A program made the translations under genes and the position numbers. A stretch of 64,000 nucleotides of DNA from Candidatus Poribacteria bacterium (GTDB lineage Bacteria > Poribacteria > WGA-4E > PCPOR2b). Position 1 is the stretch's first letter. Each line of letters begins with the position of its first letter. Below, piece by piece: positions 41,860 to 60,200 of the stretch. Location of the stretch: NCBI GenBank assembly GCA_965208325.1, contig OZ242326.1, forward strand, positions 2,272,001-2,336,000, in the 5' to 3' direction. The notes below the pieces were generated by a model, which was not told the DNA's origin, made no database searches, and saw only the letters and a list, made by a program, of their open reading frames with translations.

Positions 41860-42023
41860 ATAAGGAGTGCGATAGTCTTCAAGTCTTCACCTCCCGACAT
41901 CAGAAAGATGTTCGGCGTCGTTATGTTATCGCCAACTGATAAGAGCGCTTTTTTGCCTTTACTGGCCACTGTCCACAGACCACTGGTCACTGCCTTTACA
42001 TTCTTTCTACAGAACGTGGAACA

Positions 42024-42800: not shown

Positions 42801-43040
42801 GCGAATAAACACAACTCATTGACCTGCGGCCGCTGGTCGCGGCTTTTGAATTTTGGTGAAGCGATTATTTGAGTAACGGGACTAGCCCGAAAACCCCGAC
42901 ATACGGCAACTCCTATACTTCCAATGCTAACACCATTTCCCTCGACATTTGACCGAATCCCTTTATATTGCTTGCCACCATCGCCTCGTATTTCCTATTC
43001 ACTTCAATAGACATTTTTCCAAAATAATTCCATCGCCCGA

Positions 43041-43176
43041 TAGCCCCAGAGGGGCGACAGGTATATAGAAAACACTGTTACACATCAACATCTAGCCCCA
43101 GCGGGGCGGCAGGTGTATCACGACTACCCTCAAATTGGGCTAATACGCTGTAGGGGCAACCCTTGTGGTTGCCCTT
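43041..43176. repeat. REP-like cluster (two AGCCCCAG.GGGGCG.CAGGT copies plus GTAGGGGCAACCCTTGTGGTTGCCC)
   Basis: Copies at ~43042 and ~43093, a third at ~34328, and a GTAG palindrome at ~43151. Confidence 0.7.
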
Positions 43177-43227
43177 AACCCTTCGGTTTTGTCAACCACG
43201 TTGAGTTAAATAGGAAAGATGTCTAAT

Positions 43228-43255
43228 AAAAAAAAAGGGGAGTTGATAACTCCCC
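43228..43255 (-). terminator. Rho-independent terminator of hicB-hicA
   Basis: On the minus strand GGGGAGTT-ATC-AACTCCCC followed by T9. Confidence 0.85.
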
Positions 43256-43262
43256 CGGTAGA

Positions 43263-43476
43263 TTAGGCTTTTTTGAAATCTTTCCAAGATAGCCCTAATG
43301 ATTTAATTGCATTACGGAGCGTTCCTTCTTCTATATCTCTAGAACCGTGATCTGGAATAACTGCGATTTTGTTGTTTTTGTGGATTAAGCCATTTTCGGT
43401 GCGAACCTCCGGAACGACGCCTTTTTGCGACACAGCCTTAATTCCGTAACTTCGTTGAAACTTTTCTGTAGTTCAT
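43263..43476 (-). pseudogene. hicA: HicA-family toxin pseudogene (premature stop + frameshift)
   Basis: Hand translation: MNYRKVSTKLRN*GCVAKRRRSGGSHRKWLNP, then frameshift at ~43380 to KNNKIAVIPDHGSRDIEEGTLRNAIKSLGLSWKDFKKA*. GSH and P.H..D...GTL motifs present. Confidence 0.85.
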
Positions 43477-43493
43477 TCATAAATCAATCCACT

Positions 43494-43796
43494 TTATTGC
43501 GCCATAGCTGCCTCTAGAGTTGTTTCCAGCACTAAAGGCTTGTGGCCATAGCTTTTCCTTTCTGATGTCATTGTCCCACGATGAAAGATGCCGGCCGGTA
43601 TTTTTCTGTTAGTATCCTCATATAGCTCTAAAGTAGCAATAAGCGCATCCTCTACGTTATGTAACGCTTCATCTACAGTTCTACCATCGGTGAATAATTC
43701 GGGCAATTCTTTACACGTTACAGTGTAGCCGCCTGATGGCTGAAGGGTTAATTTAACTGTAATTCTAATAAAAGAGGATTGGCGTGCATTTTTCAT
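43494..43796 (-). CDS. hicB: HicB-family antitoxin
   Basis: GGYTVTCKELPELFTDGRTVDEALHNVEDAL motif; immediately upstream of the hicA remnant. Confidence 0.88.
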   Translation of the reverse strand: MKNARQSSFIRITVKLTLQPSGGYTVTCKELPELFTDGRTVDEALHNVEDALIATLELYEDTNRKIPAGIFHRGTMTSERKSYGHKPLVLETTLEAAMAQ

Positions 43797-44264
43797 TCTT
43801 TCACTCTAGTCCGATAAAAATTTTGAACTACGGTATTCTCCGATTCTGTTGTAATAGGCGCTATAATAACTTGCAAAACTTCGTAATGTCAAGAGATTTT
43901 GGTGGTACCTCTGCTGCCATCGTTAAATCAGACCACAAATGTAAAGAAGTCTTTTGTAGGTTGGAATCATTTGAGCGGATAGGTCAAACAACTGAATAAG
44001 GAGCGAACAGCGGCTGCGATAGTTTTCAAGTGTCTTCACTAGTCTTATACAACAAAGTCCACCGCTTTTATGCCCTGCCTAGGAAAATTTTGTGATTTTT
44101 TACGCTTAATCCTCGTTACCTCCATCTCCCATGTCCTTCCTGAGAACGAATATACTTTCCAATTCACGCTTGACGCCATATCCGCCGTTTGTTAAACTGC
44201 CTACGGATTACTTTCTGGTTCGGCGAGTTTTGAATGAATTCCGCATTTGTTTCGTGATAGCGAA

Positions 44265-44307
44265 ACCCAACGCTTTTTTCGGTCCAGATACCCAAAAAGC
44301 GTTGGGT
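44265..44307. repeat. 14-bp perfect inverted repeat upstream of giant gene 1
   Basis: ACCCAACGCTTTTT (44265-78) and AAAAAGCGTTGGGT (44294-307). Confidence 0.8.
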
Positions 44308-44460
44308 ATTGCGCCATGTATAAATGTTGACGTGCATTGTTTGGTAATTGACACCACGAATGACATAAGAATTTGATTTTCTAATGCTTAGGAATCGGCA
44401 GCTGATAGGGTTTGGAATAAAGGGATAGTAGAGAGCACAACTAACATCGACAGGGATGAA

Positions 44461-47400
44461 ATGGACCTTCTAGCGAAACGTCAGATTGTAATTTTAGCTG
44501 CATTTATGTTTCTTTTAGTTCAGAGTTTGACTTATGGCGAAACAACGGTTTCAATGAGTCCGTCTACCGTGGAGTCCCCCGCCGTTGGGCAGCAGTTGAG
44601 TTTCAGTATCAACATTACGGGCGGAATAGATGTATCGTATTTTAGGGTAACCTTGACATTTGATCCAACGGCGCTCTCGTATGTCAGCATTTCATCCGGA
44701 GGTTACCTCGGCAATACGGTGTCTGACGATACCCAGACCACTTATGATTCAATAAGATACCGAGAATCAATCAGCACTGGGGTAGACGGGGACGGCACGT
44801 TTGCCACTGTTACCTTTACAGTCCTTGAGGCCAAAGACTCCACAATCGGACTGTCAGCCGGTCTTATTAACTCAACGAACAATTTAATAGATAAAACAGT
44901 CGAAGGTGCTACCATTACTAGTCCGCAAACGACTGGAATATCCATCAGTATAGTAAGCAGCCCGGGGTCTGGAAATCCCGGCGACGATTTGACGTATACG
45001 GTTGAGGTTCAGGAGGACGGAACCGCCGCCTCTGGTAAAACAGTCTCCTTTAGCATCACTTCCGGCGATGGGAATGCGTCTCTGAACCCCGCAAGCGCAA
45101 CAACCGACACCGATGGACAAGCTTCCACGACTATAACGCTTGGACAAAATGCGTCCGGATTCTATACAGTTACGGCAACCGTCGACTCCAAATCTATCAG
45201 CGGTGCTGCAAAAGTTATCCCTCTGCCCGCAGAAATTTCAATGAGTCCGTCTAGTGTGGAGTCCCCCGCCGTTGGACAGCAGTTGAGTTTCAGTATCAAT
45301 ATTAAGGGCGGAATAGATGTGTCGTATTTTAGGGTAACCTTGACATTTGATCCAACGGCGCTCTCGTATGTCAGCATTTCATCCGGAGGTTACCTCGGCA
45401 ATACGGTGTCTGACGATACCCAGACCACCAATGATTCAGTAAAATACCGAGAATCAATCAGCACTGGGGTAGACGGGGACGGCACGTTTGCCACTGTTAC
45501 CTTTACAGTCCTTGAGGCCAAAGACTCCACAATCGGACTGTCAGCCGGTCTTATTAACTCAACGAACAATTTAATAGATAAAACAGTCGAAGGTGCTACC
45601 ATTACTAGTCCGCAAACGACTGGAATATCCATCAGTATAGTAAGCAGCCCGGGGTCTGGAAATCCCGGTGACGATTTGACGTATACGGTTGAGGTTCAGG
45701 AGGACGGAACCGCCGCCTCTGGTAAAACAGTCTCCTTTAGCATCACTTCCGGCGATGGGAATGCGTCTCTGAACCCCGCAAGCGCAACAACCGACACCGA
45801 TGGACAAGCTTCCACGACTATAACGCTTGGACAAAATGCGTCCGGATTCTATACAGTTACGGCAACCGTCGACTCCAAATCTATCAGCGGTGCTGCAAAA
45901 GTTATCCCTCTGCCCGCAGAAATTTCAATGAGTCCGTCTAGTGTGGAGTCCCCCGCCGTTGGACAGCAGTTGAGTTTCAGTATCAATATTAAGGGCGGAA
46001 TAGATGTGTCGTATTTTAGGGTAACCTTGACATTTGATCCAACGGCGCTCTCGTATGTCAGCATTTCATCCGGAGGTTACCTCGGCAATACGGTGTCTGA
46101 CGATACCCAGACCACCAATGATTCAATAAGATACCGAGAATCAATCAGCACTGGGGTAAACGGGGACGGCACGTTTGCCACTGTTACCTTTACAGTCCTT
46201 GAGGCCAAAGACTCCACAATCGGACTGTCAGCCGGTCTTATTAACTCAACGAACAATTTTATAGATAAAACAGTCGAAGGCGCTGCGATTACTAGTCCGC
46301 AAACGACTGGATTATCCATCAGTATAGTAAGCAGCCCGGGGTCTGGAAATCCCGGTGACGATTTGACGTATACGGTTGAGGTTAAGGAGGACGGTAGCGC
46401 CGCTTCAGGAAAAACAGTCTCCTTTAGCATCACTTCCGGCGATGGGAATGCGTCTCTGAACCCCGCAAGCGCAACAACCGACACCGATGGACAAGCTTCC
46501 ACGACCATAACGCTTGGACAAAATGCTTCCGGCTCATATACAGTTACTGCAACCGTCGGCTCCAAATCTATCACAGGTACGGCAACGGTTAACCCGCCGC
46601 CTACGGGAGTTACCATCAGTGTAGTGACTGCACCAGGATCTGGCGACCCCGGCGACGAATTGACGTTTACAGTTGAGGTGCAGGAGGACGGAAGTGCCGC
46701 CTCTGGAAAAACAGTGTCATTCAGTATCACTTCAGGCGATGGAAATGCGTCTCTGAACCCTACAAGCTCAACAACCGACACCAATGGACAGGCTTCCACT
46801 ACGATAACACTCGGAAACAATGCGTCCGGAATCTATATGGTTACTGCAACCGTCGACTCCGAATCCGTTAACGGTGCCGCAACAGTTACCCATCCGCCTG
46901 CGCAAATTTCAATGAGTCCGTCAACCGTAGAGTCCCCCGCCGTTGGACAGCAGTTGACTTTCAGTATCAATATTAAGGGCGGGATAGATGTGATGAGTTA
47001 TAGCACAACCGTGAGATTTGACTCCACGGCGCTCTCGTATGTCAGCCTTACGTCGGGAAATTACCTCAGCAGTTCGCAGATTAACGCTACCTCCGTCACC
47101 AATGATGTATTAAGGCACTCTGGATCACTCTCACTGGGTGAGCCAAGGGTTGGAGTAGATGGCGATGGCACGATTGCCACAGTGACCTTTACAGTCCTTG
47201 AGGTCAAGGATTCTACGCTAAGCCTGTCAGCCCGCCTTAGAGACTCATCGTCACAGTTAATAGATGAAACAACCACAGGCGCTACCATTACCAGTCCGAC
47301 AGTATCACAGACAGGATTATCAATATCTGTAGTAACCAGCCCGGGGTCAGGTAACCCCGGCGACGAGTTGACGTTCTCTGTCGAGGTGCAGGAGGACGGG

Positions 47401-50400
47401 AGCGCCGCATCAGGAAAAACAGTGACCTTTAGTATCACTTCAGGCGATGCCAATGCGTCTCTGAACCCCGCCAGCGCAACCACCGACACCGACGGCCAGG
47501 CTTCCACGACAATAACACTTGGCAACAATGCCGCCGGAATCTATATAATTACTGCGACCGTCGACTCCGAATCTATCAATGGAGCTGCAAAGGTTATCCC
47601 CCCGCCCGCAGAACTTTCACTGAGTCCGTCTAGCGTGGAGTCCCCGGCTGTTGGACAGCAGTTGACTTTCAGTATCAATATTAAGGGCGGAATAGATGTG
47701 GTGAGTTATACCACAACCGTGAGATTTGATCCAACGGCGCTCTCGTATGTCAGCCTTACATCGAGCAATTACCTCAGCAGTTCGCAGATTAACTCTACCT
47801 CCACCACCAATGATTCAGTACGTCACTCCGGATTTCTCCCGCTGGGTGAGCCAAGGGTTGGAGTAGATGGCGACGGCACGATTGCCACAGTGACCTTTAC
47901 GGTCCTTGAGGTCAAGGACTCCACACTAAGTCTGACAGCCGGCCTTAGTGACACATCGGTGCATACAACAGAGGAAACAACCAAAGGCGCTACCATTACC
48001 AGTCCGACAGTATCACAGACAGGATTATCAATAAATGTAGTAACCAGTCCCGGCTCTGGCAACCCCGGCGACGAGTTGACGTTCACAGTGGAGGTGCAGG
48101 AGGACGGGAGCGCCGTATCAGGAAAGACAGTCTCCTTTAGTATCACATCCGGAGACGGCAATGCATCGCTGAATCCCGCAAGTACAACGACGGACTCCAA
48201 TGGGCAGGCTTCCACCACCATAACACTTGGAAACAATGCGTCCGGAATCTATATAGTTACGGCGACCGTCGACTCCGAATCCATTAACGGTGCCGCAAAA
48301 GCGACCCCTCCGCCTCCGCAAATTTCAATGAGTCCGTCAACCGTGGAGTCCCCCGCCGTTGGACAGCAGTTGACTTTCAGTATCAATATTAAGGGCGGGA
48401 TAGATGTAAAAAGATTCTCTACAACTGTGAGATTTGATCCAACTGCGCTCTCGTATGTCAGCCTTACATCGGGAAACTACATCGGCACCTCGCAGTCTAA
48501 AATTACCTCTACCACCAATAATTCAGTACGTCACTCCGAATTTTTCTTACTGGATGAGGGTGAGGCTGGTGTAGATGGGGACGGCACGCTTGCCACAGTG
48601 ACCTTTACGGTCCTTGAGGTCAAGGATTCCACGCTAAGCCTGTCAGCCAGGCTTAGAAACTCATCGTCACATGAAATTGATACAACGGTGGAAGGCGCTG
48701 CGATTACCAGTCCGACAGAAACAGGATTATTGATAAGTGTTGTAACCAGCCCGGGGTCAGGTAACCCCGGCGACGAATTGACCTTCACCGTTGAGGTGCA
48801 GGAGGACGGAAGTGCCGCGTCAGGAAAAACGGTGTCGTTTAGCATCACTTCAGGCGATGGAAATGCGTCCCTGAATCCTGCAAGCGCAACAACCGATACC
48901 GCCGGGCAGGCTTCCACTACGATAACACTCGGCGACAATGCTTCAGGCTCATATGCAGTTACGGCTACCGTTGACTCAAAATCTACCACCGGTACCGCAA
49001 CGGTTAACCCCCCGCCTCAAGGAATTACCATCAGTGTAGTAACTGCCCCTGGATCCGGCGACCCCGGTGACGAATTGACCTTCACTGTTGAGGTGCAGGA
49101 GGACGGAAGTGCCGCCTCTGGAAAAACAGTGTCATTCAGTATTACTTCCGGCGATGGAAATGCGTCGCTGAGCCCCGCTAGCGCAACAACCGACACCAAC
49201 GGTCAGGCTTCCACTACGATAACGCTTGGGGCAAACGCGACCGGCTCATATACAGTTACGGCTACCGCCGACGCAACATCTACCAGTGGTATTGCAACGG
49301 TTAACACCACGTCGCCGCAAATAATCCTCAGTGTAGTAACTGCCCCTGGTTCCGGCAACCCGGGTGACGCGTTGACGTTCACTGTTGAGGTGCAGGAGGA
49401 CGGAAACGCCGCATCAGGAAAAACAGTGGCGTTCAGTATTACTTCAGGCGATGGAAATGCGTCTCTGAGCCCTGCAAGCGCAACAACCGACACCAACGGA
49501 CAAGCTTCCACCACTATAACACTTGGAAATAATGCGTCCGGAATCTATATAGTTACTGCGACCGTCGACTCCGAATCTGTCAACGGCGCCGCAACAGCTA
49601 CCCCCCCGCCAGTAGAACTTTCACTGAGTCCGTCAACCGTAGAGTCCCCCGCCGTTGGACAGCAGTTGACTTTCAGTATCAATATTAAGGGCGGGATAGA
49701 TGTGCTGAGTTATAGGACAATCGTGAGATTTGACTCAACTGCGCTCTCGTATGTCAGCCTTACATCGGGAAATTACCTCGGCAGTTCGCAGATTAACACT
49801 ACCTCCACCACCAATGATTCAGTAACCCACTCTGGATCGCTCACACTGGCTGAGCCAAGGGTTGGAGTAGATGGCGACGGCACGATTGCCACAGTGACCT
49901 TTACAGTCCTTGAAGTCAAGGACTCCACGATACGCCTGTCAGCCAGCCTTAGTAATTCATCAAGTCGTTTAATAGATAAAACAACCACTGGCGCTGCCAT
50001 TACCAGTCCGATGGTATCCCAGACAGGATTATCGATAAGTGTAGTCAGCAGTCCCGGCTCTGGCAACCCCGGCGACGAGTTGACGTTTACCGTTGAGGTG
50101 CAGGAGGACGGAAACGCCGCCTCGGGAAAATCAGTCTCTTTCAATATCACCTCCGGCGATGGAAATGCGTCTCTGAGCCCTGCAAGCGCAACAACCGACA
50201 CCAACGGACAAGCTTCCACCACTATAACACTTGGAAATAATGCGTCCGGAATCTATATAGTTACTGCGACCGTCGACTCCGAATCTGTCAACGGCGCCGC
50301 AACAGCTACCCCCCCGCCAGTAGAACTTTCACTGAGTCCGTCAACCGTAGAGTCCCCCGCCGTTGGACAGCAGTTGACTTTCAGTATCAATATTAAGGGC

Positions 50401-53400
50401 GGGATAGATGTGCTGAGTTATACCACAATCGTGAGATTTGACTCAACTGCGCTCTCGTATGTCAGCCTTACATCGGGAAATTACCTCGGCAGTTCGCAGA
50501 TTAACACTACCTCCACCACCAATGATTCAGTAACCCACTCTGGATCGCTCACACTGGCTGAGCCAAGGGTTGGAGTAGATGGCGACGGCACGATTGCCAC
50601 AGTGACCTTTACAGTCCTTGAAGTCAAGGACTCCACGATACGCCTGTCAGCCAGCCTTAGTAATTCATCAAGTCGTTTAATAGATAAAACAACCACTGGC
50701 GCTGCCATTACCAGTCCGATGGTATCCCAGACAGGATTATCGATAAGTGTAGTCAGCAGTCCCGGCTCTGGCAACCCCGGCGACGAGTTGACGTTTACCG
50801 TTGAGGTGCAGGAGGACGGAAACGCCGCCTCGGGAAAATCAGTCTCTTTCAATATCACCTCCGGCGATGGAAATGCGTCTCTGAGCCCTGCAAGCGCAAC
50901 AACCGACACCAACGGACAAGCTTCCACCACTATAACACTTGGAAATAATGCGTCCGGAATCTATATAGTTACTGCGACCGTCGACTCCGAATCTGTCAAC
51001 GGCGCCGCAACAGCTACCCCCCCGCCAGTAGAACTTTCACTGAGTCCGTCAACCGTAGAGTCCCCCGCCGTTGGACAGCAGTTGACTTTCAGTATCAATA
51101 TTAAGGGCGGGATAGATGTGCTGAGTTATAGGACAATCGTGAGATTTGACTCAACTGCGCTCTCGTATGTCAGCCTTACATCGGGAAATTACCTCGGCAG
51201 TTCGCAGATTAACACTACCTCCACCACCAATGATTCAGTAACCCACTCTGGATCGCTCACACTGGCTGAGCCAAGGGTTGGAGTAGATGGCGACGGCACG
51301 ATTGCCACAGTGACCTTTACAGTCCTTGAAGTCAAGGACTCCACGATACGCCTGTCAGCCAGCCTTAGTAATTCATCAAGTCGTTTAATAGATAAAACAA
51401 CCACTGGCGCTGCCATTACCAGTCCGATGGTATCCCAGACAGGATTATCAATAAGTGTAGTAACCAGCCCGGGGTCAGGTAACCCCGGCGACGAGTTGAC
51501 GTTCACAGTTCGGGTGCAGGAGGACGGAAGCGCCGCTTCAGGAAAATCAGTGTCATTCAGTATCACTTCCGGCGATGGAAATGCGTCCCTGAATCCAAGC
51601 AGTGCAACAACTGGCACCAATGGACAGGCTTCCACTACATTAACGCTCGGAAACAATGCCGCCGGTTCCTACACAGTTACTGCGGAGGTCGGCACGGAGT
51701 CTGTCAGTGCAGCCGCAACGGTTCAATCGGCAATGACCGATCAGAAGAAGGACAATCAACAACAACCGCAGGCAGGATTAACGATTAGTGTAGTAAGCAG
51801 TCCCGGGGCTGGCAATCCCGGTGACACATTGACGTTTGCTGTCGAGGTGCAGGCGGACGGGAGCGCCGCTTCAGGAAAAACAGTGTCGTTTAGTATCACC
51901 TCCGGCGATAGTAATGCGTCTTTGAATCCCGAAAGCGCTGCGACAGATAGCAAAGGGCGGGCTTCAACAACAATAACACTCGGAGAAAATGCTGCTGGCT
52001 CATACAGAGTTACTGCGGCGGTCGGTACGGAGACTGTCAGCTCGACAGTAACCGTTGAAACGTCAACAACTACCTCGCCGACGCCCAAAACTCTGGCGGA
52101 GGTTTCCGGCAATAATCAGAGCGCCTTGACCGGTAAAGCGTTGGCTAATCCCTTCGTCGTTAAAATTCTAGATCAGCATGACAACCTGATGGAAGGAGTC
52201 ACTGTAACTTTTTCTGTCACCGCAGGCGGCGGTTCGTTGAGCCGTACAAGCTTAGACACGGATGCCGACGGATTAGCAAAAAGCACCCTGGCGCTTGGCA
52301 GCGAGCCGGGTACAAACACGGTTACGGCAAGTGTCGAAGGAATCGCCGAAACCGTAACCTTTTCCGCTGTCGCTGAACTACTCGAATTTGACCTCTCAGT
52401 GCCTTCCGGTACTAGCTTGATTCACGTGCCGCTAAAAACCAGGACGGTTGACGGGACAACTGCCGCCATCAATTCAATTGCTGATCTGTACGAAGCGCTT
52501 GGCGGCGCAGATACGGTTAAGCTCCTTATTACATATAACCGAAATACGCAACAGTGGAATAGCTACCTCGGTGCGGGAAGTAAAGGAGGTACGGCGGATA
52601 GAGCCTTGGCGGCGGACCTAGGAATCGTCGCCAGCTTGAAATCATCCGTAACGGTTCGTATCGGAGGCGACCAACTCGGTTCGGGCGGAACGAGCACGAT
52701 AGGCTTAATCCAAGGCAAGAATCTAATCGGATTGCCGTTGAGAGATTCAATGATATCTCGTGTTAGCGACTTGCTTACGCTTGACGGCATTGCCGACAAC
52801 GCGGATGCCATTACTGTTTCGGTTGGCGGAAAGTTCAATACGGTCGAGCAAACCGGCGATGCAGGAGACATCTCAATTACGGGCGGACAAGCCTTTATCC
52901 TCGACGTTTCAAATGATGCGTCGGTTTCTATCTCCGGTGCAGGGTGGGATAACACTCCCGCCAACACTATGGCTGCACCGTTTTTGGCGGCGGAGGACAT
53001 TAACGTAACTGAAACCACGCCTGTGTTAGCGATGACCGGTGCGATTGTTCACCGTGTCGAAAATATTAACGGCAAAACTCTAACTGTTGTCGTCAAAAAC
53101 CTCTCAACAGGCCGCACAGTTACCGCGCTAATTGGAGATACCGGTGGCGTTTCATCGCGGGCTGATTACCAGCTCACTGTCGTTGATATAAAGCACGGAC
53201 GAGCAGCGGCTATAGGTGATATCCTTAAAATGTCCGCCGTTTCTGCCGATAACTCTATCAGCGCGCCGCCGCTGCGATACACTGTTACGGCTGAAGATAT
53301 CAAGTTGAACCGGATTCAGTTGCCCGAACTAATAGTCCAAGCCATACCTAAGGAAACGCAACTGTTGCCGAACTACCCGAACCCGTTCAACCCGGAGACC

Positions 53401-53643
53401 TGGATTCCCTACCGGTTATCGAAAGCTGCCGAAGTGACGTTGGAGATTTACGACGCCGCGGGCAACTTGGTGCGGACCATTGATGTCGGCTTCAAACCAG
53501 CCGCTGCGTACGATTCGCGTGCCTCGGCGATATACTGGGATGGCCGCAACAACTATGGTGAACCCATCGCCAGCGGCGTATATTTCTATCACTTGTTTAC
53601 GGACGCCTTTTCTGCCGCGCGCAAGATGCTCATTTTAAAGTAG
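44461..53643 (+). CDS. Giant secreted scaffoldin/invasin-like protein: 9 cohesin-like + ~14 Big_1-like Ig modules + C-terminal FlgD-Ig/T9SS-CTD-like domain
   Basis: Signal peptide. Cohesin-like units SPAVGQQL.F.I.I.GG.DV...FD..AL.Y...G.YL...GDGT.ATVTF.V. Ig units GKTVSFSITSGDG...ATTD.NGQASTT.TLG...G.Y.VTATV. Tail LLPNYPNPFNPETWIPY...WDGRN...SGVYFY...RKMLILK. Confidence 0.85.
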   Translation: MDLLAKRQIVILAAFMFLLVQSLTYGETTVSMSPSTVESPAVGQQLSFSINITGGIDVSYFRVTLTFDPTALSYVSISSGGYLGNTVSDDTQTTYDSIRYRESISTGVDGDGTFATVTFTVLEAKDSTIGLSAGLINSTNNLIDKTVEGATITSPQTTGISISIVSSPGSGNPGDDLTYTVEVQEDGTAASGKTVSFSITSGDGNASLNPASATTDTDGQASTTITLGQNASGFYTVTATVDSKSISGAAKVIPLPAEISMSPSSVESPAVGQQLSFSINIKGGIDVSYFRVTLTFDPTALSYVSISSGGYLGNTVSDDTQTTNDSVKYRESISTGVDGDGTFATVTFTVLEAKDSTIGLSAGLINSTNNLIDKTVEGATITSPQTTGISISIVSSPGSGNPGDDLTYTVEVQEDGTAASGKTVSFSITSGDGNASLNPASATTDTDGQASTTITLGQNASGFYTVTATVDSKSISGAAKVIPLPAEISMSPSSVESPAVGQQLSFSINIKGGIDVSYFRVTLTFDPTALSYVSISSGGYLGNTVSDDTQTTNDSIRYRESISTGVNGDGTFATVTFTVLEAKDSTIGLSAGLINSTNNFIDKTVEGAAITSPQTTGLSISIVSSPGSGNPGDDLTYTVEVKEDGSAASGKTVSFSITSGDGNASLNPASATTDTDGQASTTITLGQNASGSYTVTATVGSKSITGTATVNPPPTGVTISVVTAPGSGDPGDELTFTVEVQEDGSAASGKTVSFSITSGDGNASLNPTSSTTDTNGQASTTITLGNNASGIYMVTATVDSESVNGAATVTHPPAQISMSPSTVESPAVGQQLTFSINIKGGIDVMSYSTTVRFDSTALSYVSLTSGNYLSSSQINATSVTNDVLRHSGSLSLGEPRVGVDGDGTIATVTFTVLEVKDSTLSLSARLRDSSSQLIDETTTGATITSPTVSQTGLSISVVTSPGSGNPGDELTFSVEVQEDGSAASGKTVTFSITSGDANASLNPASATTDTDGQASTTITLGNNAAGIYIITATVDSESINGAAKVIPPPAELSLSPSSVESPAVGQQLTFSINIKGGIDVVSYTTTVRFDPTALSYVSLTSSNYLSSSQINSTSTTNDSVRHSGFLPLGEPRVGVDGDGTIATVTFTVLEVKDSTLSLTAGLSDTSVHTTEETTKGATITSPTVSQTGLSINVVTSPGSGNPGDELTFTVEVQEDGSAVSGKTVSFSITSGDGNASLNPASTTTDSNGQASTTITLGNNASGIYIVTATVDSESINGAAKATPPPPQISMSPSTVESPAVGQQLTFSINIKGGIDVKRFSTTVRFDPTALSYVSLTSGNYIGTSQSKITSTTNNSVRHSEFFLLDEGEAGVDGDGTLATVTFTVLEVKDSTLSLSARLRNSSSHEIDTTVEGAAITSPTETGLLISVVTSPGSGNPGDELTFTVEVQEDGSAASGKTVSFSITSGDGNASLNPASATTDTAGQASTTITLGDNASGSYAVTATVDSKSTTGTATVNPPPQGITISVVTAPGSGDPGDELTFTVEVQEDGSAASGKTVSFSITSGDGNASLSPASATTDTNGQASTTITLGANATGSYTVTATADATSTSGIATVNTTSPQIILSVVTAPGSGNPGDALTFTVEVQEDGNAASGKTVAFSITSGDGNASLSPASATTDTNGQASTTITLGNNASGIYIVTATVDSESVNGAATATPPPVELSLSPSTVESPAVGQQLTFSINIKGGIDVLSYRTIVRFDSTALSYVSLTSGNYLGSSQINTTSTTNDSVTHSGSLTLAEPRVGVDGDGTIATVTFTVLEVKDSTIRLSASLSNSSSRLIDKTTTGAAITSPMVSQTGLSISVVSSPGSGNPGDELTFTVEVQEDGNAASGKSVSFNITSGDGNASLSPASATTDTNGQASTTITLGNNASGIYIVTATVDSESVNGAATATPPPVELSLSPSTVESPAVGQQLTFSINIKGGIDVLSYTTIVRFDSTALSYVSLTSGNYLGSSQINTTSTTNDSVTHSGSLTLAEPRVGVDGDGTIATVTFTVLEVKDSTIRLSASLSNSSSRLIDKTTTGAAITSPMVSQTGLSISVVSSPGSGNPGDELTFTVEVQEDGNAASGKSVSFNITSGDGNASLSPASATTDTNGQASTTITLGNNASGIYIVTATVDSESVNGAATATPPPVELSLSPSTVESPAVGQQLTFSINIKGGIDVLSYRTIVRFDSTALSYVSLTSGNYLGSSQINTTSTTNDSVTHSGSLTLAEPRVGVDGDGTIATVTFTVLEVKDSTIRLSASLSNSSSRLIDKTTTGAAITSPMVSQTGLSISVVTSPGSGNPGDELTFTVRVQEDGSAASGKSVSFSITSGDGNASLNPSSATTGTNGQASTTLTLGNNAAGSYTVTAEVGTESVSAAATVQSAMTDQKKDNQQQPQAGLTISVVSSPGAGNPGDTLTFAVEVQADGSAASGKTVSFSITSGDSNASLNPESAATDSKGRASTTITLGENAAGSYRVTAAVGTETVSSTVTVETSTTTSPTPKTLAEVSGNNQSALTGKALANPFVVKILDQHDNLMEGVTVTFSVTAGGGSLSRTSLDTDADGLAKSTLALGSEPGTNTVTASVEGIAETVTFSAVAELLEFDLSVPSGTSLIHVPLKTRTVDGTTAAINSIADLYEALGGADTVKLLITYNRNTQQWNSYLGAGSKGGTADRALAADLGIVASLKSSVTVRIGGDQLGSGGTSTIGLIQGKNLIGLPLRDSMISRVSDLLTLDGIADNADAITVSVGGKFNTVEQTGDAGDISITGGQAFILDVSNDASVSISGAGWDNTPANTMAAPFLAAEDINVTETTPVLAMTGAIVHRVENINGKTLTVVVKNLSTGRTVTALIGDTGGVSSRADYQLTVVDIKHGRAAAIGDILKMSAVSADNSISAPPLRYTVTAEDIKLNRIQLPELIVQAIPKETQLLPNYPNPFNPETWIPYRLSKAAEVTLEIYDAAGNLVRTIDVGFKPAAAYDSRASAIYWDGRNNYGEPIASGVYFYHLFTDAFSAARKMLILK
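44551..46530 (+). repeat. ~3 near-identical 687-bp tandem units (cohesin-like + Ig)
   Basis: Matching DNA at 44551/45238/45925; antisense ORFs recur at 687-bp offsets. Confidence 0.9.
49448..51450 (+). repeat. ~3 near-identical 708-bp tandem units (cohesin-like + Ig)
   Basis: Matching DNA at 49448/50156/50864; antisense ORFs at 49773/50481/51189. Confidence 0.9.
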
Positions 53644-54200
53644 TATCAGATGACCATATGACGGCTGCAATGCTGATGAATAGCGAGTTTCCGTCATCAC
53701 TCGTGAGTCGGTTGGATAGTAATTGTAGGTTGGGTTAAGTGGGAAACACCGAATAGCTAGCCTTCCTGTCAATGCCTAAAGCCTTTGCAGGTAGCGCGAA
53801 CAGATCAATCAAACGAATAGGGAGGGCGATAGTTTTCTAGGCGCTTCGATAGCATGTGCAGTTCTTCATCATATAAATCTTAGTCCCTATTCTTCACCGA
53901 AACCAAAATCAAGAACTTTCGCGCCTTTTGTTCGGACACCTAAAAAATGTTGGGTATTGCGTCATGAATATAGATGGATATTTCACGCAGTTGGGCAAAA
54001 GATTCCGCGGCACATATCGGTACAAAATACAACAAAACAACCTCAATCTTTAGCTTTATGCATTAACCGTCAAATGTGCAGGAAAGTCAAGACATTGTAT
54101 GCGATTTTAAGCGCTCGATTAATAATGCTTCAGCTCGATATTCAACAGTAGATTTGGCTTGGAATAAAGAGATAGTCGAGAGCGCAATCAAAAGATTCAT

Positions 54201-57200
54201 GTGCATGAAAGGAAATATCTATTGAAACGTCAGATTGGCATTTTAGCTGCACTTATCTTACTTGTAAATTACAGTGTGATTTATGGCGCAACAACGGTTT
54301 CAATGAGTCCGTCTACCGTAGCGTCCCCCGCCGTTGGCCAGCAGTTGAGTTTTAGTATCAACATTACGGGCGGATTGGATGTGGGGAATTTTAGACTAGT
54401 CGTGACATTTGATTCAAATGCGCTCTCATATACCAGCACCACCTCTGGAAGTTACCTCGGCAGTTCGGCGGCTAGCTCAACCAGAGCCACCAGTAATTCA
54501 GTAACACATAGTGAAGGACTAATCAGCACGGGGGTAGATGGCGACGGTACGCTTGCCACAGTTACCTTTTCCGTCCTTGAGGTCAAGGGCTCCACTATCG
54601 GTCTGTCAGCCACCCTTTATAACCCACAATGGGAATCAATAAGTACAACAGCAGAAGGCGCAACGATTACAAGTGCGGGATTATCCATAAGTAACGTAAG
54701 TGAGCCCGGGGCTGGCGACCCCGGTGACGAGTTGACGTATACGGTTGAGGTTCAAGAGGACGGAAGCGCAGCGTCAGGAAAAACAGTGTCGTTTAGTATC
54801 ACCGCCGGAGACGGAAATGCATCTCTGAGTCCCGCAAGCGCAACAACTGACACCGATGGGCAGGCTTCCACCACAATAACACTTGGTGCCAGTGCGTCCG
54901 GCTCATATACAGTTACAGCAACCGTCGACTCCAAATCCACCACCGGTACGGCAACAGTCAATCCACCGCCTCCGAAAATTTCAATGAGCCCGTCTACCGT
55001 GGCGTCTCCAGCCGTTGGCCAGCAGTTGAACTTTAGTATTAGCATTAACGGCGGAATGGATGTGGCGGGTTATTTAGTAAAAGTGACATTTGATTCAAAT
55101 GCGCTCTCGTATGCAAGCATTTCATCTGGAGGTTACCTCGGTAGTTCGGCGACTAGCTCAACCACAACCACGAGTGATTCAGTAACATTCATCGAAGCAA
55201 TTGGCGCCACGACCGGGGTAAATGGGAACGGTACGCTTGCCACCGTAACCTTTACAGTCCTTGAGGTCAAGGCCTCCACTATCGGGCTGTCAGCTACTCT
55301 CAGCAACCCGCGTATCGAAACAATAACTTCAACAGCCGAAGGCGCTGTGGTTACCAATCCAGGATTATCAATAAGTAACGTAACCGGTCCTGGGTCTGGA
55401 GATCCCGGCGATGAGTTGACGTATACGGTTGAGGTTCAGCAGGACGGGAGCGCCGCTTCAGGAAAAACGGTGTCGTTCAGCATCACTTCCGGCGACGGAA
55501 ATGCGTCTCTGAGCCCCGAAAGCGCAACAACCGATACCGACGGTCAGGCTTCCACTACGATAACACTTGGAGAAAATGCGTCAGGCTCATATACAGTTAC
55601 GGCAACCGTTGACTCAAAATCTACCACCGGTACGGCAACGGTTAACCCCCCGCCTCCGGAAATTACCATCAGTGTAGTTACTGCCCCTGGCTCCGGCGAC
55701 CCCGGCGACGAGCTGACCTTCACCGTTGAGGTGCAGGAGGACGGGAGCGCCGCTTCAGGAAAAACAGTGTCGTTTAGCATTACTTCCGGTGATGGAAATG
55801 CCACTCTGAACCCCGAAAGCGCAACAACCGACACCGATGGACAAGCTTCCACTACGATAACACTTGGGAACAATGCGTCAGGCTCATATACAGTTACGGC
55901 AACCGTCGACTCAAAATCTACAACCGGTACGGCGACCGTTAACTCCACATCCCCGGGAATTTCGATTAGCGTTGTAACTGCCCCTGGATCCGGTAACCCC
56001 GGCGACGAATTGACGTTCACTGTTGAGGTGCAGGAGGACGGAAGTGCCGCGTCGGGAAAAACAGTGTCGTTTAGCATCACTTCCGGCGACAGCAATGCGT
56101 CTCTGAACCCCGAAAGCGCAACGACCGATACCAACGGTCAGGCTTCCACCACGATAACGCTTGGGGCAAACGCATCCGGCTCATATACAGTTACGGCAAC
56201 CGTTGACTCCAAATCCACCACCGGTACCGCAACCGTTAACCCCCCGCCTCCGGAAATTACCATCAGTGTAGTAACTGCCCCTGGATCCGGCGACCCCGGC
56301 GACGAGCTGACCTTCACCGTTGAGGTGCAGGAGGACGGAAGCGCCGCATCAGGCAAAACTGTCTCGTTTAGTATCACATCGGGAGACGGCAATGCCTCTC
56401 TGAGCCCTGAAAGCGCAACAACCGATACCAACGGTCAGGCTTCCACCACGATAACGCTTGGAGAAAATGCGTCAGGCTCATATACAGTTACGGCAACCGC
56501 CGACTCCAAATCCACCACCGGTACCGCAACCGTTAACCCCCCGCCTCCGGAAATTACCATCAGTGTAGTTACTGCCCCTGGCTCCGGCGACCCCGGCGAC
56601 GAGCTGACCTTCACCGTTGAGGTGCAGGAGGACGGAAGCGCCGCGTCAGGAAAAACGGTGTCGTTCAGCATCACTTCCGGCGATGGAAATGCGTCTCTGA
56701 GCCCTGAAAGTGCAACAACCGATACCAACGGTCAGGCTTCCACTACGATAACGCTTGGAGAAAATGCGTCAGGCTCATATACAGTTACGGCAGCCGCCGA
56801 CTCCAAATCCACCAGCGGTACCGCAACCGTTAACCCCCCGCCGCCGGAAATTACCATCAGTGTAGTAACTGCCCCTGGATCCGGCGACCCCGGTGACGAA
56901 TTGACGTTCACTGTTGAGGTGCAGGAGGATGGAAGCGCCGCGTCAGGAAAAACGGTGTCGTTCAGCATCACTTCCGGCGATGGAAATGCGTCTCTGAGCC
57001 CTGAAAGCGCAACAACCGATACCAACGGTCAGGCTTCCACCACGATAACGCTTGGGGCAAACGCATCCGGCTCATATACAGTTACGGCATCCGTCGACTC
57101 CAAATCCACCAGCGGTACCGCAACCGTTAACTCCACATCTCCGGCAACTACGATCACGGTAATAACTGCTCCTGGATCCGGCGACCCCGGCGACGAGTTG

Positions 57201-60200
57201 ACGTTTACTGTCGAGGTGCAGGAGGACGGAAGTGCTGCCTCCGGAAAAACTGTGTCGTTTAGCATTACCTCCGGCGATGGAAATGCGTCTCTGAACCCTA
57301 CAGACGCAACAACCGACACCAATGGGCAGGCTTCCACCACTATAACACTTGGCAACAATGCGTCCGGAATCTACATAATTACTGCAACCGTCGACTCCGA
57401 ATCCATTAACGGTGCCGCAACAGTTACCCATCCGCCTGCGCAAATTTCAATGAGCCCGTCTAGTGTGGAGTCCCCCGCTGTCGGGCAGCAGTTGCGTTTT
57501 AGTATCAACATTACAGGCGGACTGGATGTGAAGAGTTTCGGATTACACGTGAGATTTGATTCATCTGCACTCTCGTATGTCAGCATGGCATCCGGAGGTT
57601 ACCTCGGTAGTGATTCGAATGTCTTTTCCTTTTCCGCCAATGATCAGGTAACATACAGCGAAAGAACCAGCAATGGTGGGGTAGACGGGGACGGCACGCT
57701 TGCCACGGTAACCTTTACAGTCCTTGAGATTAAGGACTCCACAATAAGGCTGTCAGCCAGTCTAACCAATTCGTCGTCAAATTCAATTGATAATACAGTC
57801 GAAGGCGCTGCCATTACCCGCCCGGCAGTATCACAGACGGGATTATCCATAAGTGTAGTAAGCAGCCCGGGGTCTGGAAATCCCGGCGACGAGTTGACGT
57901 TTACTATTGAGGTCCAAGAGGACGAAAGCGCCGCAACCGGAAAAACGGTGACCTTTAGTATCACTTCAGGCGATGGAAATGCATCTCTGAACCCCGCAAG
58001 CGCAACCACGGACAGCAACGGACAGGCTTCCACGACAATAACGCTTGGAAACAATGCGTCCGGCATCTATATAGTTACTGCAACCGTTGACTCAGAATCT
58101 ATCAACGGGGCCGCAACAGTCATCCCCCCGCCTGCAGAAATTTCAATGAGTCCGTCTAGCGTGGAATCCCCAGCCGTTGGACAGCAGGTGACTTTTGATA
58201 TCAATATTAAGGGCGGTCTGGATGTGAAGGACTATGGAGTCACCGTGGGGTTCGATGCAACGGCACTCTCGTATGACAGCATTGCCTCTGGAGGTTATCT
58301 CGGAAATACGGCGCGCGACAGTACCAGCACCACCAATAATTCCGTATCGTACGGCGAATCTATCACCACTGGCGGGGTGGATGGGGACGGCACGCTTGCC
58401 ACCGTAACTTTTACCGTCCTTGACGTCAAGGACTCCACGCTAGCGCTGTCAGCCAGCCTTAGTAATTCATTGAGACAAATAATATATACAACAGTCGAAG
58501 GCGCCGCGATTACGATTCCGCCGCCGCCAGTATCACCCGCAGGATTATCCATAAGTGTAGTCAGCAGTCCCGGTTCTGGTAATCCCGGCGATGAGTTGAC
58601 GTTTACTATCGAGGTCCAAGAGGACGGAAGCGCCGCTTCAGGAAAAACGGTGTCGTTCAGCATCACTTCCGGCGATGGAAATGCGTCTCTGAACCCTGCA
58701 AGCGCAACGACGGACATCAACGGACAGGCTTCCACGGCTATAACGCTTGGAAACAATGCGTCCGGCATCTTTATAGTTACTGCAACCGTGGACTCAGAAT
58801 CCATCAACGGCGCCGCACTAGTTATCCCCCCGCCTGCGCAAATTTCCATGAGTCCGTCAACCGTAGAGTCACCCGCCGTTGGACAGCAGTTGACTTTTGA
58901 TATCAACATTAAGGGCGGAATTGATGTCGCGAGATTTGGGTTTACCGTGAGATTTGATTCAACTGCACTCTCGTATGTCAGCATCACGTCTGGAAATTAC
59001 CTCGGCAGTGGGGCGCGCGATAGCACCAGCACCATAAACAATTCCGTATTGTACAGCGAACAAATTACCACTGGTGCAGGAGGGGATGGGGATGGCACAC
59101 TTGCCACAGTGACCTTTACCGTCCTAGAGGTCAAGGACTCCACACTAACGCTCGAAGCCAACCTAAGCAACTCATCGTCACATGCAATAGATAAAACCGT
59201 AGAAGGCGCCGCGATTACGATTCCGCCGGAGCCAGTAACACCGTCAGGATTATCAATAAGTGTAGTAACCAGTCCGGGGTCAGGTAACCCCGGTGACGAG
59301 CTGACGTTCACTGTTCAGGTGCAGGAGGACGGAAGCGCCGCATCAGGAAAATCAGTGTCATTCAGTATCACTTCCGGCGATGGAAATGCATCTCTGAACC
59401 CCGCCAGCGCAACCACCGATACCAATGGACAAGCTTCCACTACATTAACGCTCGGAAACAATGCCGCCGGTTCCTACACAGTTACTGCGGCGGTCGGCAC
59501 GGAGTCTGTCAGTGCAGCCGCAACGGTTCAAACGACAATGACCGATCAGAAGAAGGACAATCAACAACAACCGCAGACAGGATTAACGATTAGTGTAGTA
59601 AGCAGTCCCGGAACTGGCAATCCCGGTGACACATTGACGTTTGCTGTCGAGGTTCAGGCGGACGGGAGCGCCGCTTCAGGAAAAACAGTGTCGTTTAGTA
59701 TCACCTCCAGCGATGGTAATGCGTCTTTGAATCCCGAAAGCGCTGCGACGGATACCAAAGGGCGGGCTTCAACAACAATAACACTTGGGGAAAATGCTGC
59801 TGGCTCATACAGAGTTACTGCGGCGGTCGGTACGGAGACTGTCAGCTCGACAGTAACCGTTGAAACGTCAACAACTACCTCGCCGACGCCCAAAACTCTG
59901 GCGGAGGTTTCCGGCAATAATCAGAGCGCCTTGACCGGTAAAGCGTTGGCTAATCCCTTCGTCGTTAAAATTCTAGATCAGCATGACAACCTGTTGGAAG
60001 GAGTCACTGTAACTTTTTCTGTCACCGCAGGCGGCGGTTCGTTGAGCCGTACAAGCTTAGACACGGATGCCGACGGATTAGCAAAAAGCACCCTGGCGCT
60101 TGGCAGCGAGCCGGGTACAAACACGGTTACGGCAAGTGTCGAAGGAATCGCCGAAACCGTAACCTTTAACGCTGTCGCTGAACTGCTCGAATTTGACCTC

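Follow-up and report, generated by a model that had tools for sequence, protein, structure and literature searches.

Two neighboring genes in the 64,000-nucleotide stretch of poribacterial DNA analyzed here (the window) encode proteins in which cohesin modules alternate with immunoglobulin-like domains. An earlier note, made from the letters of the window, had described these modules as a constant framework with three hypervariable segments on the dockerin-binding face. The question that the locus raises is whether such modules hold one class of partner, hold many different ones, or bind something other than dockerins.

Two paralogous multicohesin proteins

The product of gene A comprises a signal peptide, nine cohesin modules alternating with 13 Big_1 Ig domains, additional domains of Big_1/invasin-like type, an uncharacterized domain before the C-terminal one, and a type IX secretion (T9SS) C-terminal sorting domain (Table 1); the signal peptide is a putative one, read by eye from the N terminus. 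Its paralogue B shares the C-terminal region and the sorting domain with A. As annotated publicly, B has 2408 aa and starts 7 codons further in; over that length, protein P0003 and B are identical at 2407 of 2408 residues. The Pfam Cohesin family (PF00963, cut-off 24.1 bits) matched nine stretches in A (178.7 bits) and five in B (93.8 bits), and 14 of its 16 matches in the genome lie inside these two genes. All 14 modules of the earlier note were recovered, the first at 44548-44919 and the last at 58842-59219, and represent 13 distinct amino acid sequences; they are spread over two polypeptides, not over the "one scaffold" that the note had proposed. In the Pfam search neither A nor B matched a catalytic family, which makes them noncatalytic tandem-cohesin proteins, as scaffoldins are, and neither matched a CBM family.

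Table 1. Positions of the two genes, their domains, and the variable segments of module Ac4 in the window
Feature	Position	Strand	Description
Gene A	44461..53643	+	Scaffoldin-like protein, 3060 aa, predicted secreted (ORF, translation, Pfam, NCBIfam)
Cohesin Ac1	44548..44919	+	Type 1
Big_1 Ig span of A	44938..52050	+	13 motif-bearing domains between cohesins (Pfam)
Cohesin Ac2	45235..45606	+	Type 1
Cohesin Ac3	45922..46293	+	Type 1
Cohesin Ac4	46906..47292	+	Type 2; without alignment gaps; structure model mccf69abc1df4, pLDDT 92.2
Ac4 V1	46993-47016	+	Strand 3
Ac4 V2	47068-47157	+	Loop 4/5, strands 5 and 6, loop 6/7
Ac4 V3	47218-47268	+	Strand 8, loop 8/9, start of strand 9
Cohesin Ac5	47614..48000	+	Type 3
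Cohesin Ac6	48322..48708	+	Type 4
Cohesin Ac7	49618..50004	+	Type 5
Cohesin Ac8	50326..50712	+	Type 5
Cohesin Ac9	51034..51420	+	Type 5; DNA of module identical to Ac7
Pre-sorting-domain conserved region of A	52378..53370	+	About 330 aa, without Pfam family
T9SS type A C-terminal sorting domain of A	53374..53634	+	TIGR04183, 34.2 bits (cut-off 23), residues 2972-3058; PF18962, 58.8 bits
Gene B	54201..61448	+	Paralogue of A, 2415 aa; 5 cohesin modules and 12 motif-bearing Big_1 domains
Cohesin Bc1	54297..54671	+	Type 6
Big_1 Ig span of B	54681..59855	+	12 motif-bearing domains, seven in a run between Bc2 and Bc3 (Pfam)
Cohesin Bc2	54978..55355	+	Type 7; sole module with the family's AGY on strand 3
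Cohesin Bc3	57444..57818	+	Type 8
Cohesin Bc4	58140..58514	+	Type 9
Cohesin Bc5	58842..59219	+	Type 10; structure model m47aeb51a8011, pLDDT 91.5
T9SS C-terminal sorting domain of B	61179..61439	+	PF18962, 67.7 bits (cut-off 27); TIGR04183, 21 bits, slightly below cut-off 23

The sorting domain is carried by A, B, and the dockerin proteins of the genome alike. PorV has two matches in the genome (best, 63.8 bits, above the cut-off), and SprA_N has a weak match only, at 23.4 bits (cut-off 27) in a 2196-aa frame. A and B are paralogous scaffoldin-like surface proteins of a sponge symbiont, with type IX secretion as the probable route of export. The domain of about 330 aa that precedes the sorting domain in A is common to B and to P0008, another poribacterial multicohesin protein; its matches in the Atlas are uncharacterized clusters only (best score, 0.87), some of them with Por_Secre_tail.

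Every genome of the order (41 of 41) has the module family. The 148 representative proteins comprise 74 with one cohesin, 47 with two, 18 with three, 7 with four, and 2 with five. A and B differ from these mostly one- to few-cohesin proteins in their nine and five modules, in the alternation with Big_1 domains, and in the contrast between framework and face, and no other protein combining cohesins and Big_1 domains in this way was found outside this species. Divergent modules on a single chain are common, however, since in 7 of 11 other multicohesin proteins with at least three modules the modules diverge further from one another than those of A or B do (identity of 0.37-0.64 versus 0.75 and 0.65).

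Distribution of variation over the cohesin fold

Per-column entropy in the 14-module alignment is approximately zero in the framework quoted by the earlier note and high in columns 30-37, 55-84, and 105-121, which bears out the description of a constant framework with three hypervariable segments (V1 to V3); every string quoted in its support is present, and Ac8 gives an additional segment 1 variant, LSYTTIVR. Identity among modules averages 0.84 in the framework (minimum, 0.69) and 0.45 in the three segments (minimum, 0.24). With a threshold of at least 70% segment identity, the modules sort into 10 types, between which face identity drops to 24-69%. Types 1 and 5 each comprise three nearly identical copies. 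The 708-bp repeat units of Ac7 and Ac8 show a single difference, GG>CC at 50423-50424 (49715-49716 in Ac7), which changes R to T at an outward-facing position of strand 3.

Both structure models (Ac4 and Bc5) display nine strands at the same alignment columns, that is, the nine-stranded, flattened jelly-roll beta-sandwich, and the Bc5 model matches cohesins in Foldseek and VIA. As aligned and modeled, the A and B modules have an unmodified cohesin fold. Strands delimited independently from these models agree with the by-eye assignment of the earlier note: V1 is strand 3 (columns 29-37), and V2 and V3 occupy the strands and loops listed for Ac4 in Table 1, V3 taking in most of strand 8. With sheet membership taken from the published cohesin topology, mean entropy is 1.25 in strands 8, 3, 6, and 5 versus 0.49 in strands 9, 1, 2, 7, and 4 (Mann-Whitney p = 4.5e-5), and at polar, surface-like positions, where solvent exposure is deduced from strand alternation only, it is 1.48 in the 8-3-6-5 sheet versus 0.45 in the other (p = 1.4e-5). 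Variation is unevenly distributed over the fold, contrary to the even spread that would have refuted the earlier note, with values of 1.51 (b3), 1.54 (b5), 1.34 (b6), and 0.78 (b8) in the front sheet and 0.25 (b1), 0.46 (b2), 0.52 (b4), 0.24 (b7), and 0.97 (b9) in the back sheet. Variable columns alternate with invariant hydrophobic ones in strand 8, and the loops that vary most are 8/9 (1.80) and 6/7 (1.20). According to the accessible text of two studies, sheet 8-3-6-5 is the dockerin contact surface and the place where differently specific cohesins chiefly differ (PMC8063739, PMC5429695); one of them also counts loops 6/7 and 8/9 among the contacts and describes affinity as dominated by single residues of the flat 8-3-6-5 surface (PMC5429695). 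The location of the variation on the usual gripping face suggests a docking scaffold of many specificities.

Alternatively, all modules might bind the same dockerin class with one or broadly overlapping specificities, as in Clostridium thermocellum CipA, the variable positions being peripheral and tolerant of change. CipA cohesins share one dockerin class. Like A, CipA is a noncatalytic scaffold with nine tandem cohesins and a comparable identity spread: in the available part of a recent preprint, its cohesins are about 61-94% identical, thus differing by up to about 39%, with about 61-76% identity between subsets (bioRxiv 10.64898/2026.01.19.700288). Across 93 other poribacterial cohesins, too, the columns of V2 and V3 vary most (Spearman 0.53), so that the pattern is in part generic to the family. 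Unlike that of CipA, however, the divergence in A and B is concentrated on the binding platform, its central strand included: the ratio of the entropy in the 13 distinct modules to that in 93 unrelated family members is 1.03 for strand 3 and 0.15-0.58 for the other strands. By this measure, only the diversification of strand 3 is unusual relative to the poribacterial family. Together with the low face identity between types and the weight of single 8-3-6-5 residues in affinity, this argues against a CipA-like scaffold, which we consider unlikely.

The GYQ motif of strand 3 (family entropies 0.68, 0.34, and 1.47) is conserved in the family and replaced in the A and B modules, and strands 5-6, hydrophobic in the family consensus, are rich in Ser, Thr, Asn, and Asp in A and B. 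Given these two changes, the A and B modules may no longer bind the usual poribacterial dockerins. The same changes would suit a variable face that binds a nondockerin target (sponge matrix, cell surface molecules, glycans, or other microbes) or that is exposed to phages or host recognition, in which case an adhesin or antigen under diversifying or frequency-dependent selection would account for the types and for the cassette changes between strains. We regard this as somewhat unlikely, because the cohesin fold is unmodified, the variation lies on the classical dockerin platform, the genome has dockerin proteins, and cohesins and dockerins occur together on the same proteins in the wider family (e.g., P0006).

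Candidate partners and known scaffoldins

Dockerin_1 matched the genome 11 times, in 10 ORFs, a count that records their presence and implies no pairing with A or B. All 10 show the duplicated pattern of calcium loop and helix (F-hand), with helices that differ (mean column identity, 48%). Their proteins carry WD40 (2), cadherin, FGE-sulfatase (2), TIG, LRR/Big_1, LDL-receptor class B/CARDB, and fn3/Ig domains, and one has no further family. Where a cellulosome has dockerins on carbohydrate-active enzymes and a CBM on the scaffold, the dockerins here accompany these other families and A and B have no CBM match. Sister species without A and B have 15, 12, and 20 dockerin matches versus 11 here; such equal or higher counts indicate that the dockerins do not depend on the A/B scaffold, a point in favor of the adhesin or antigen.

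Our best explanation, still a tentative one, is that A and B are paralogous surface scaffoldins whose face has diverged into 10 types with different predicted dockerin preferences. The core and back sheet (9-1-2-7-4) of the 14 cohesins are kept by purifying selection, and it is the front sheet (8-3-6-5), together with the neighboring loops 6/7 and 8/9, that has diverged. Each type would prefer its own dockerin or dockerin subset among the dockerin-tagged proteins of the genome, with the WD40, cadherin, LRR, LDL-receptor-type propeller, TIG, and FGE-sulfatase proteins as candidate partners, and A and B together would gather such "eukaryote-like" binding proteins at the cell surface into a complex of defined, mixed composition. 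Designer cellulosomes are engineered chimeric scaffoldins in which differently specific cohesins place partners at set positions; with the specificities predicted here, A and B would work in the same way but be natural.

Among known scaffoldins, Ruminococcus flavefaciens ScaB likewise has more than one cohesin class in tandem on one polypeptide, with differences on sheet 8-3-6-5; in the sections available of its description, cohesins 1-4 bind group 1 dockerins and cohesins 5-9 bind only the ScaA dockerin (PMC5429695), two specificities compared with the 10 face types that we distinguish in A and B from sequence only. The ScaB system is Gram positive, sortase/ScaE anchored, and directed at plant fiber, with dockerins on glycoside hydrolases, whereas A and B combine a T9SS sorting domain with Big_1 spacers and lack a CBM, and the dockerins here belong to proteins with WD40, cadherin, LRR, LDLR-type, TIG, and FGE-sulfatase domains. 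The scaffoldin-like protein of "Ca. Stygibacter" (Cloacimonadota) differs as well, with CBM2/CBM3 modules and with dockerins on chitinase, amylase, and peptidases in a degradative complex; face-specific diversification is not reported in its paper. A literature search of openly accessible papers found none that, by title or abstract, treats cohesin-dockerin systems of Poribacteria or of sponge symbionts. Should the partners indeed differ from type to type, A and B would be the most multispecific natural scaffoldin described and the first whose role lies in displaying eukaryote-like binding proteins instead of in polysaccharide breakdown. They would also offer a concrete model of host-facing surface organization in uncultured sponge symbionts and, for use in protein assembly, orthogonal cohesin-dockerin pairs that are close relatives and have one constant framework in common. 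Should all modules bind alike or bind no dockerin, the locus would still be a clean natural case of face-restricted divergence in a repeat protein.

Selection and variation between strains

From five phylogenetically independent module pairs, dN/dS was 0.19 in the framework and 1.49, 0.84, and 0.66 in V1, V2, and V3, each above the framework (Fisher p = 2.6e-6, 1.3e-6, and 1.7e-4, respectively), with comparable dS in the two classes (0.36 vs 0.41). The segments also lie well over the Ig spacers (0.13), a contrast on which the earlier note had staked its reading. The 25 Big_1 copies of A and B have a mean dS of 0.84 and a mean dN of 0.11; the claim that the spacers barely change therefore holds for the protein and not beyond it, and by these rates the copies are old, did not arise by recent duplication, and have been under strong purifying selection. 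Segment dN/dS is not different from 1 in V1, V2, or V3 (binomial p 0.23-0.50), so that positive selection is not demonstrated. Values not exceeding 1 would fit a CipA-like scaffold and, being statistically inseparable from 1, also relaxed constraint, under which the front face is functionless and drifting, the fold alone is selected, and the modules are spacers like the Ig domains.

Relaxed constraint nevertheless appears very unlikely in view of variation within the species, for which the statistics come from one partial allele of A (P0153, from another Poribacteria MAG) and from the 40 best-supported of 183 read variants on short assembled contigs, where strains or paralogues may be mixed: amino acid differences between P0153 and A number 0/24 in V1, 2/90 in V2, and 4/222 in the framework, the read variants in V2 comprise 6 synonymous and 2 nonsynonymous changes (binomial p = 0.005 versus neutrality), and an MK-like contrast of read variants with between-type divergence (V1 plus V2, 113 N and 39 S) gives p = 0.007. 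The retention of three near-identical copies each of types 1 and 5 also argues against drift.

V3 is a hot spot between strains, with 9/51 positions differing versus 6/336 elsewhere in the cohesins (p = 1.7e-5), and in a second strain array position 1, after the same signal peptide, is occupied by an eleventh type of module, with identities of 65/75 in the framework, 1/8 in V1, 10/25 in V2, and 6/17 in V3. Array composition varies between strains. Both observations would suit an adhesin or antigen, as would the finding that a sister species lacks A and B at the syntenic site, whereas the stability of V1 and V2 between the two strains, where comparable, is unlike a fast arms race. Within the multispecific docking reading, it is tempting to speculate, doubtful as this remains, that A and B are a natural "designer scaffoldin," in which at least 10 cohesin types, arranged in a fixed order, would each bring one particular eukaryote-like protein with a dockerin tag (WD40, cadherin, LRR, LDLR-type propeller, and others) into an ordered host interaction organelle on the sponge symbiont surface, retuned by strains through swaps of whole module types, like the one at array position 1, and through changes in the strand 8/9 hairpin.

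The term "antibody-like" in the earlier note overstates the case, since it implies a generating mechanism and none was found. A search of the 4.7-Mb single-contig genome (95.6% complete) for RVT_1 (PF00078) gave 0 matches, and with no reverse transcriptase match there and V1 and V2 types stable between strains, a diversity-generating retroelement target was rejected. As a separate observation on the position 1 module of the second strain, the loose ends of run X3, read by eye, encode the V2 of that type.

Modular anatomy and the face on which the modules differ

Genes A and B, two neighbouring paralogous genes for giant surface proteins, have the anatomy of scaffoldins, with a docking platform of about 10 divergent forms set in an almost unchanging framework. 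Both proteins start with what reads by eye like a signal peptide, and Pfam places nine cohesin stretches in A (Ac1 to Ac9) and five in B (Bc1 to Bc5), together with 14 and 13 Big_1 immunoglobulin (Ig) stretches, respectively. Each ends in a Por_Secre_tail sorting domain (Pfam), to which NCBIfam adds a T9SS type A sorting domain. Fourteen of the 16 cohesin matches in the single-contig 4.7-Mb genome lie within these two proteins; the single scaffold assumed in an earlier note is in fact a pair. A conserved domain precedes the tail in both; it also occurs in P0008, another poribacterial multi-cohesin protein, and its Atlas neighbours are uncharacterised clusters, some with Por_Secre_tail, one of these being commonest in Poribacteria.

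Features of the window and of the two genomes compared (window positions unless marked G000, this genome, or G002, the sister species)
Feature	Coordinates	Strand	Size	Remark
Gene A	44461-53643	+	3060 aa	
Gene B	54201-61448	+	2415 aa	adjoins A
Pre-tail conserved domain	52378-53370 (A)		~330 aa	no Pfam family; equivalent region in B
Big_1 copies compared	44938-52050 and 54681-59855			25 copies
Stretch surveyed for read variants	46700-49000			
Ac7/Ac8 GG>CC difference	49715-49716 vs 50423-50424			
Stretch upstream of A	42801-44460	+	~1.66 kb	without ORF of at least 100 aa
Lower-GC stretch	42001-44000			GC 0.45
Two TPR-repeat proteins	6872-15534	-	2026 aa and 896 aa	larger with C-terminal AhpC/redoxin domain
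Stretch compared with sister species	39638-63852			
Sister-species locus L035	G002:C1:2411500-2420500			
Single-cohesin secreted protein	G000:C1:1622950-1624053		~350 aa	
Single-cohesin secreted protein	G000:C1:3483748-3484842		~350 aa	
Dockerin-bearing gene	G000:C1:3481704-3483521			

When the 14 modules were extracted and aligned over 129 columns, per-column entropy was concentrated in three segments (V1 to V3), and mean identity was 0.84 in the framework and 0.45 in the segments. This profile agrees with the near-invariant frame and three variable segments that had been described by eye. At 70% segment identity, the modules fall into 10 types (Ac1-3, Ac4, Ac5, Ac6, Ac7-9, Bc1, Bc2, Bc3, Bc4, and Bc5). 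An assembly artefact was rejected as their source, since the modules carry synonymous differences from one another and 19 of the 36 contigs of sponge-metagenome run X1 show matches of at least 99%.

Structure models of Bc5 (pLDDT 91.5) and Ac4 (pLDDT 92.2) contain the same nine strands at identical alignment columns (b1, 2-8; b2, 16-24; b3, 29-37; b4, 43-50; b5, 59-65; b6, 68-74; b7, 84-97; b8, 103-113; b9, 118-128), and because of this correspondence the segments can be mapped onto the fold. V1 corresponds to strand 3; V2 covers strands 5 and 6 with the adjoining loops 4/5 and 6/7, the latter carrying a 5-residue insertion in the Ac4-Ac9 group; V3 takes in the greater part of strand 8 together with loop 8/9 and the beginning of strand 9. 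The by-eye assignment of the segments to strands 3, 5-6, and 8 in the earlier note agrees with this mapping. With sheet membership taken from the published cohesin topology, mean entropy is 1.25 in the model-defined strands of the 8-3-6-5 sheet versus 0.49 in those of the 9-1-2-7-4 sheet (p = 4.5e-5), and 1.48 versus 0.45 at polar positions only (p = 1.4e-5). Strand positions and hydrophobic alternation stand in here for solvent exposure; strand 8 shows such an alternation, its variable columns being interleaved with hydrophobic columns that do not vary. Excerpts of two published reports (PMC8063739, PMC5429695) describe the 8-3-6-5 sheet as the dockerin-binding plateau, with loops 8/9 and 6/7 rising towards dockerin helix 1, and locate the differences between cohesins of differing specificity mainly on this sheet. 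The same excerpts have affinity dominated by single residues of the flat cohesin surface, and Gln37 of BcCohScaA11 is an example of a published contact residue (PMC8063739, in part).

Constraint among modules, spacers, and the wider cohesin family

Over the 45 pairs of the 10 types, Nei-Gojobori estimates were dS 0.51 and dN 0.10 for the framework and dS 0.62 and dN 0.56 for the segments. Region-specific ratios were obtained from five phylogenetically independent sister pairs chosen on a plain maximum-likelihood tree; none of the three segments departs from neutrality (dN/dS = 1) in these five pairs (p 0.23-0.50). Since dS is alike in framework (0.36-0.51) and segments (0.41-0.62), the framework is kept by purifying selection, and gene conversion was rejected as the cause of its uniformity.

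Variation by region among modules and between strains
Region	Alignment columns	dN/dS (five independent pairs)	Fisher p vs framework	Two-strain differences	Synonymous/non-synonymous read variants (40 best-supported of 183)
Framework		0.19		4/222 (Ac4-Ac6 block)	6/3
V1	30-37	1.49	2.6e-6	0/24 (Ac4-Ac6 block)	0/0
V2	55-84	0.84	1.3e-6	2/90 (Ac4-Ac6 block)	6/2
V3	105-121	0.66	1.7e-4	9/51 (Ac4-Ac6 block)	2/5
Big_1/linker				9/216 (Ac4-Ac6 block)	11/5
C-terminal region				5/736 (P0153 comparison)	

The 25 Big_1 copies have a mean dS of 0.84 (up to about 2), higher than that of the cohesin framework, and a dN of 0.11, which gives a ratio of 0.13; the segment ratios (0.66-1.49) lie above it, as predicted. 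The earlier description of the Ig spacers as barely changing therefore stands at the protein level, where they are near-identical, but not at synonymous sites, which are strongly scrambled. These are long-standing copies under strong constraint, and their mean dS rejects recent duplication. Their high synonymous divergence may reflect selection against inter-repeat recombination, or the copies may simply be old and under very strong constraint.

A profile of the module matched 1,678 proteins (E <= 0.001) among 1.84 billion representatives and all 41 genomes of the order; the four confirmed loci with the same module type all belong to Candidatus Poribacteria. A family survey covered the 150 matches listed plus some further proteins, and 148 of all these gave 260 module hits: 74 with one module, 47 with two, 18 with three, seven with four, and two with five. 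Family entropy was computed from one near-full-length module of each of 93 proteins, 55 of the 148 being left out for want of a hit spanning profile positions 8 to 115. It correlates with that of the A/B modules (Spearman 0.53), and V2 and V3 are the most variable stretches of the whole family too. Strand 3 departs from this agreement: it is conserved as V-A-G-Y-Q in the family (entropy 0.68 for G, 0.34 for Y, and 1.47 for Q), and the two further single-cohesin proteins of this genome retain GYQ. The ratio of A/B to family entropy is 1.03 for strand 3, where the A/B modules equal the entire family in diversity, and 0.15-0.58 for every other strand. Strands 5 and 6 are rich in Ser, Thr, Asn, and Asp in A/B versus hydrophobic in the family consensus. 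Divergence within one protein is not unusual per se: 7 of 11 other proteins with at least three modules exceed that of A (identity 0.75) and B (0.65).

Among searched proteins of 30-4227 aa, none outside this species has cohesins of this type together with Big_1 arrays. Other Poribacteria have long, similarly built Big_1-array proteins in which a dockerin takes the place of the cohesins (P0154, P0156, P0157, P0168, and others), and the Ig array may thus serve plug and socket alike as a shared stalk.

Alleles and strain-level exchange

A partial allele of A from another strain was found on one 302,695-bp contig of a Poribacteria MAG, as P0153 (1731 aa) and P0172 (492 aa). Differences between the two strains are concentrated in V3 relative to all other cohesin positions (p = 1.7e-5). 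P0153 appears to be without the Ab7-Ac9 block, which may be a short-read assembly collapse and is given no weight here. Among metagenome contigs scanned for alleles of the Ac4-Ac6 block, none of 137 pattern matches was confirmed.

Read variants were taken from contigs of four sponge-metagenome runs (four studies), short assemblies no piece of which spans the surveyed stretch; two of the runs, X2 and X3, share one alternative allele. The reading is confined to covered parts and leaves aside two joints, each backed by a single contig with short sides. The excess of synonymous variants in V2 (p = 0.005 versus neutrality) places this segment under purifying selection within the species. Taken together, V1 and V2 show 113 non-synonymous and 39 synonymous changes between types versus 2 and 6 among alleles (p = 0.007), a contrast that resembles a McDonald-Kreitman excess. 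Both results come from small counts on short contigs and from the best 40 of 183 variants. Drift of the variable face, which we regard as improbable, is disfavoured by these allele data.

Behind the same signal peptide as in A, P0172 carries two modules belonging to an eleventh type; strains thus differ in module type at array position 1. Compared with Ac1, the P0172 module matches at 65/75 framework positions, 1/8 in V1, 10/25 in V2, and 6/17 in V3, and two loose ends of run X3, read by eye, encode the V2 of this type. Within this genome, the 708-bp repeats that Ac7 and Ac8 form with their Big_1 domains are identical apart from a GG>CC change in a single strand-3 codon (R>T). An identical local string in Ac5 makes a micro-conversion from a very short tract possible; a long-read consensus error is possible as well.

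The genome holds no RVT_1 match, and hypervariation of the DGR type was rejected. Given that a generating mechanism is absent and that V1 and V2 are stable between strains, the likening of these modules to an antibody repertoire is unwarranted.

Candidate partners and genomic setting

The genome encodes 11 dockerin matches in 10 ORFs (L025-L034). Pfam assigns to these proteins WD40 propellers (two), cadherin repeats, FGE-sulfatase (two), TIG, LRR with Big_1, LDL-receptor class B with CARDB, and fn3/Ig, one being without a further family; a glycoside hydrolase family is found on none of the 10. In each, the dockerin lies about 200 residues from the C terminus, and the last 60 residues follow a common pattern. 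Eight carry a tail-domain family (FlgD_ig, Por_Secre_tail, or CHU_C; Pfam), and the two WD40 proteins have none among the matches listed. A genome profile search gave two matches to PorV and one weak match to SprA_N. The duplicated calcium-loop and helix pattern is present in all 10 dockerins; the helices differ.

The function we hold most likely, if tentatively, is that A and B would recruit these dockerin-tagged eukaryote-like proteins in a type-specific manner. ScaB, as presented in part of PMC5429695, is a precedent for a cohesin-dockerin scaffold with more than one specificity. All modules might instead share one specificity, as in CipA, which seems rather unlikely. Somewhat less unlikely, though still doubtful, is that the variable face is an adhesin or antigen surface that does not engage dockerins. 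A further precedent, according to part of PMC8542988, is the occurrence in Gram-negative lineages of scaffoldin-like proteins whose C-terminal domain (CTD) attaches them to the surface. New here are the array size of A and B, the face-restricted divergence that extends to strand 3, otherwise conserved in the family, the exchange of module types between strains, and the non-enzymatic nature of the putative cargo.

In one sister species, synteny with the stretch 39638-63852 is kept for the TPR, SNase, TauE, and downstream genes, but only 5.8 kb separates the two flanking genes, and this interval holds no cohesin gene. Dockerin matches number 15, 12, and 20 in the three sister species, against only 3, 5, and 7 cohesin matches. 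A and B are therefore an addition of this lineage to a dockerin set already present, and the 17-kb pair is a lineage-specific insertion or expansion.

GC is lower in the ORF-poor stretch upstream of A. Farther upstream lie two very large TPR-repeat proteins, and HEAT-repeat, FG-GAP/ASPIC, and VWA proteins occur elsewhere in the window; a link of any of these to the cohesin genes is not apparent. The two single-cohesin proteins are close paralogues with few differing positions by eye and have an unknown C-terminal domain and no sorting tail; the gene for one of them (3483748-3484842) immediately follows a dockerin-bearing gene.
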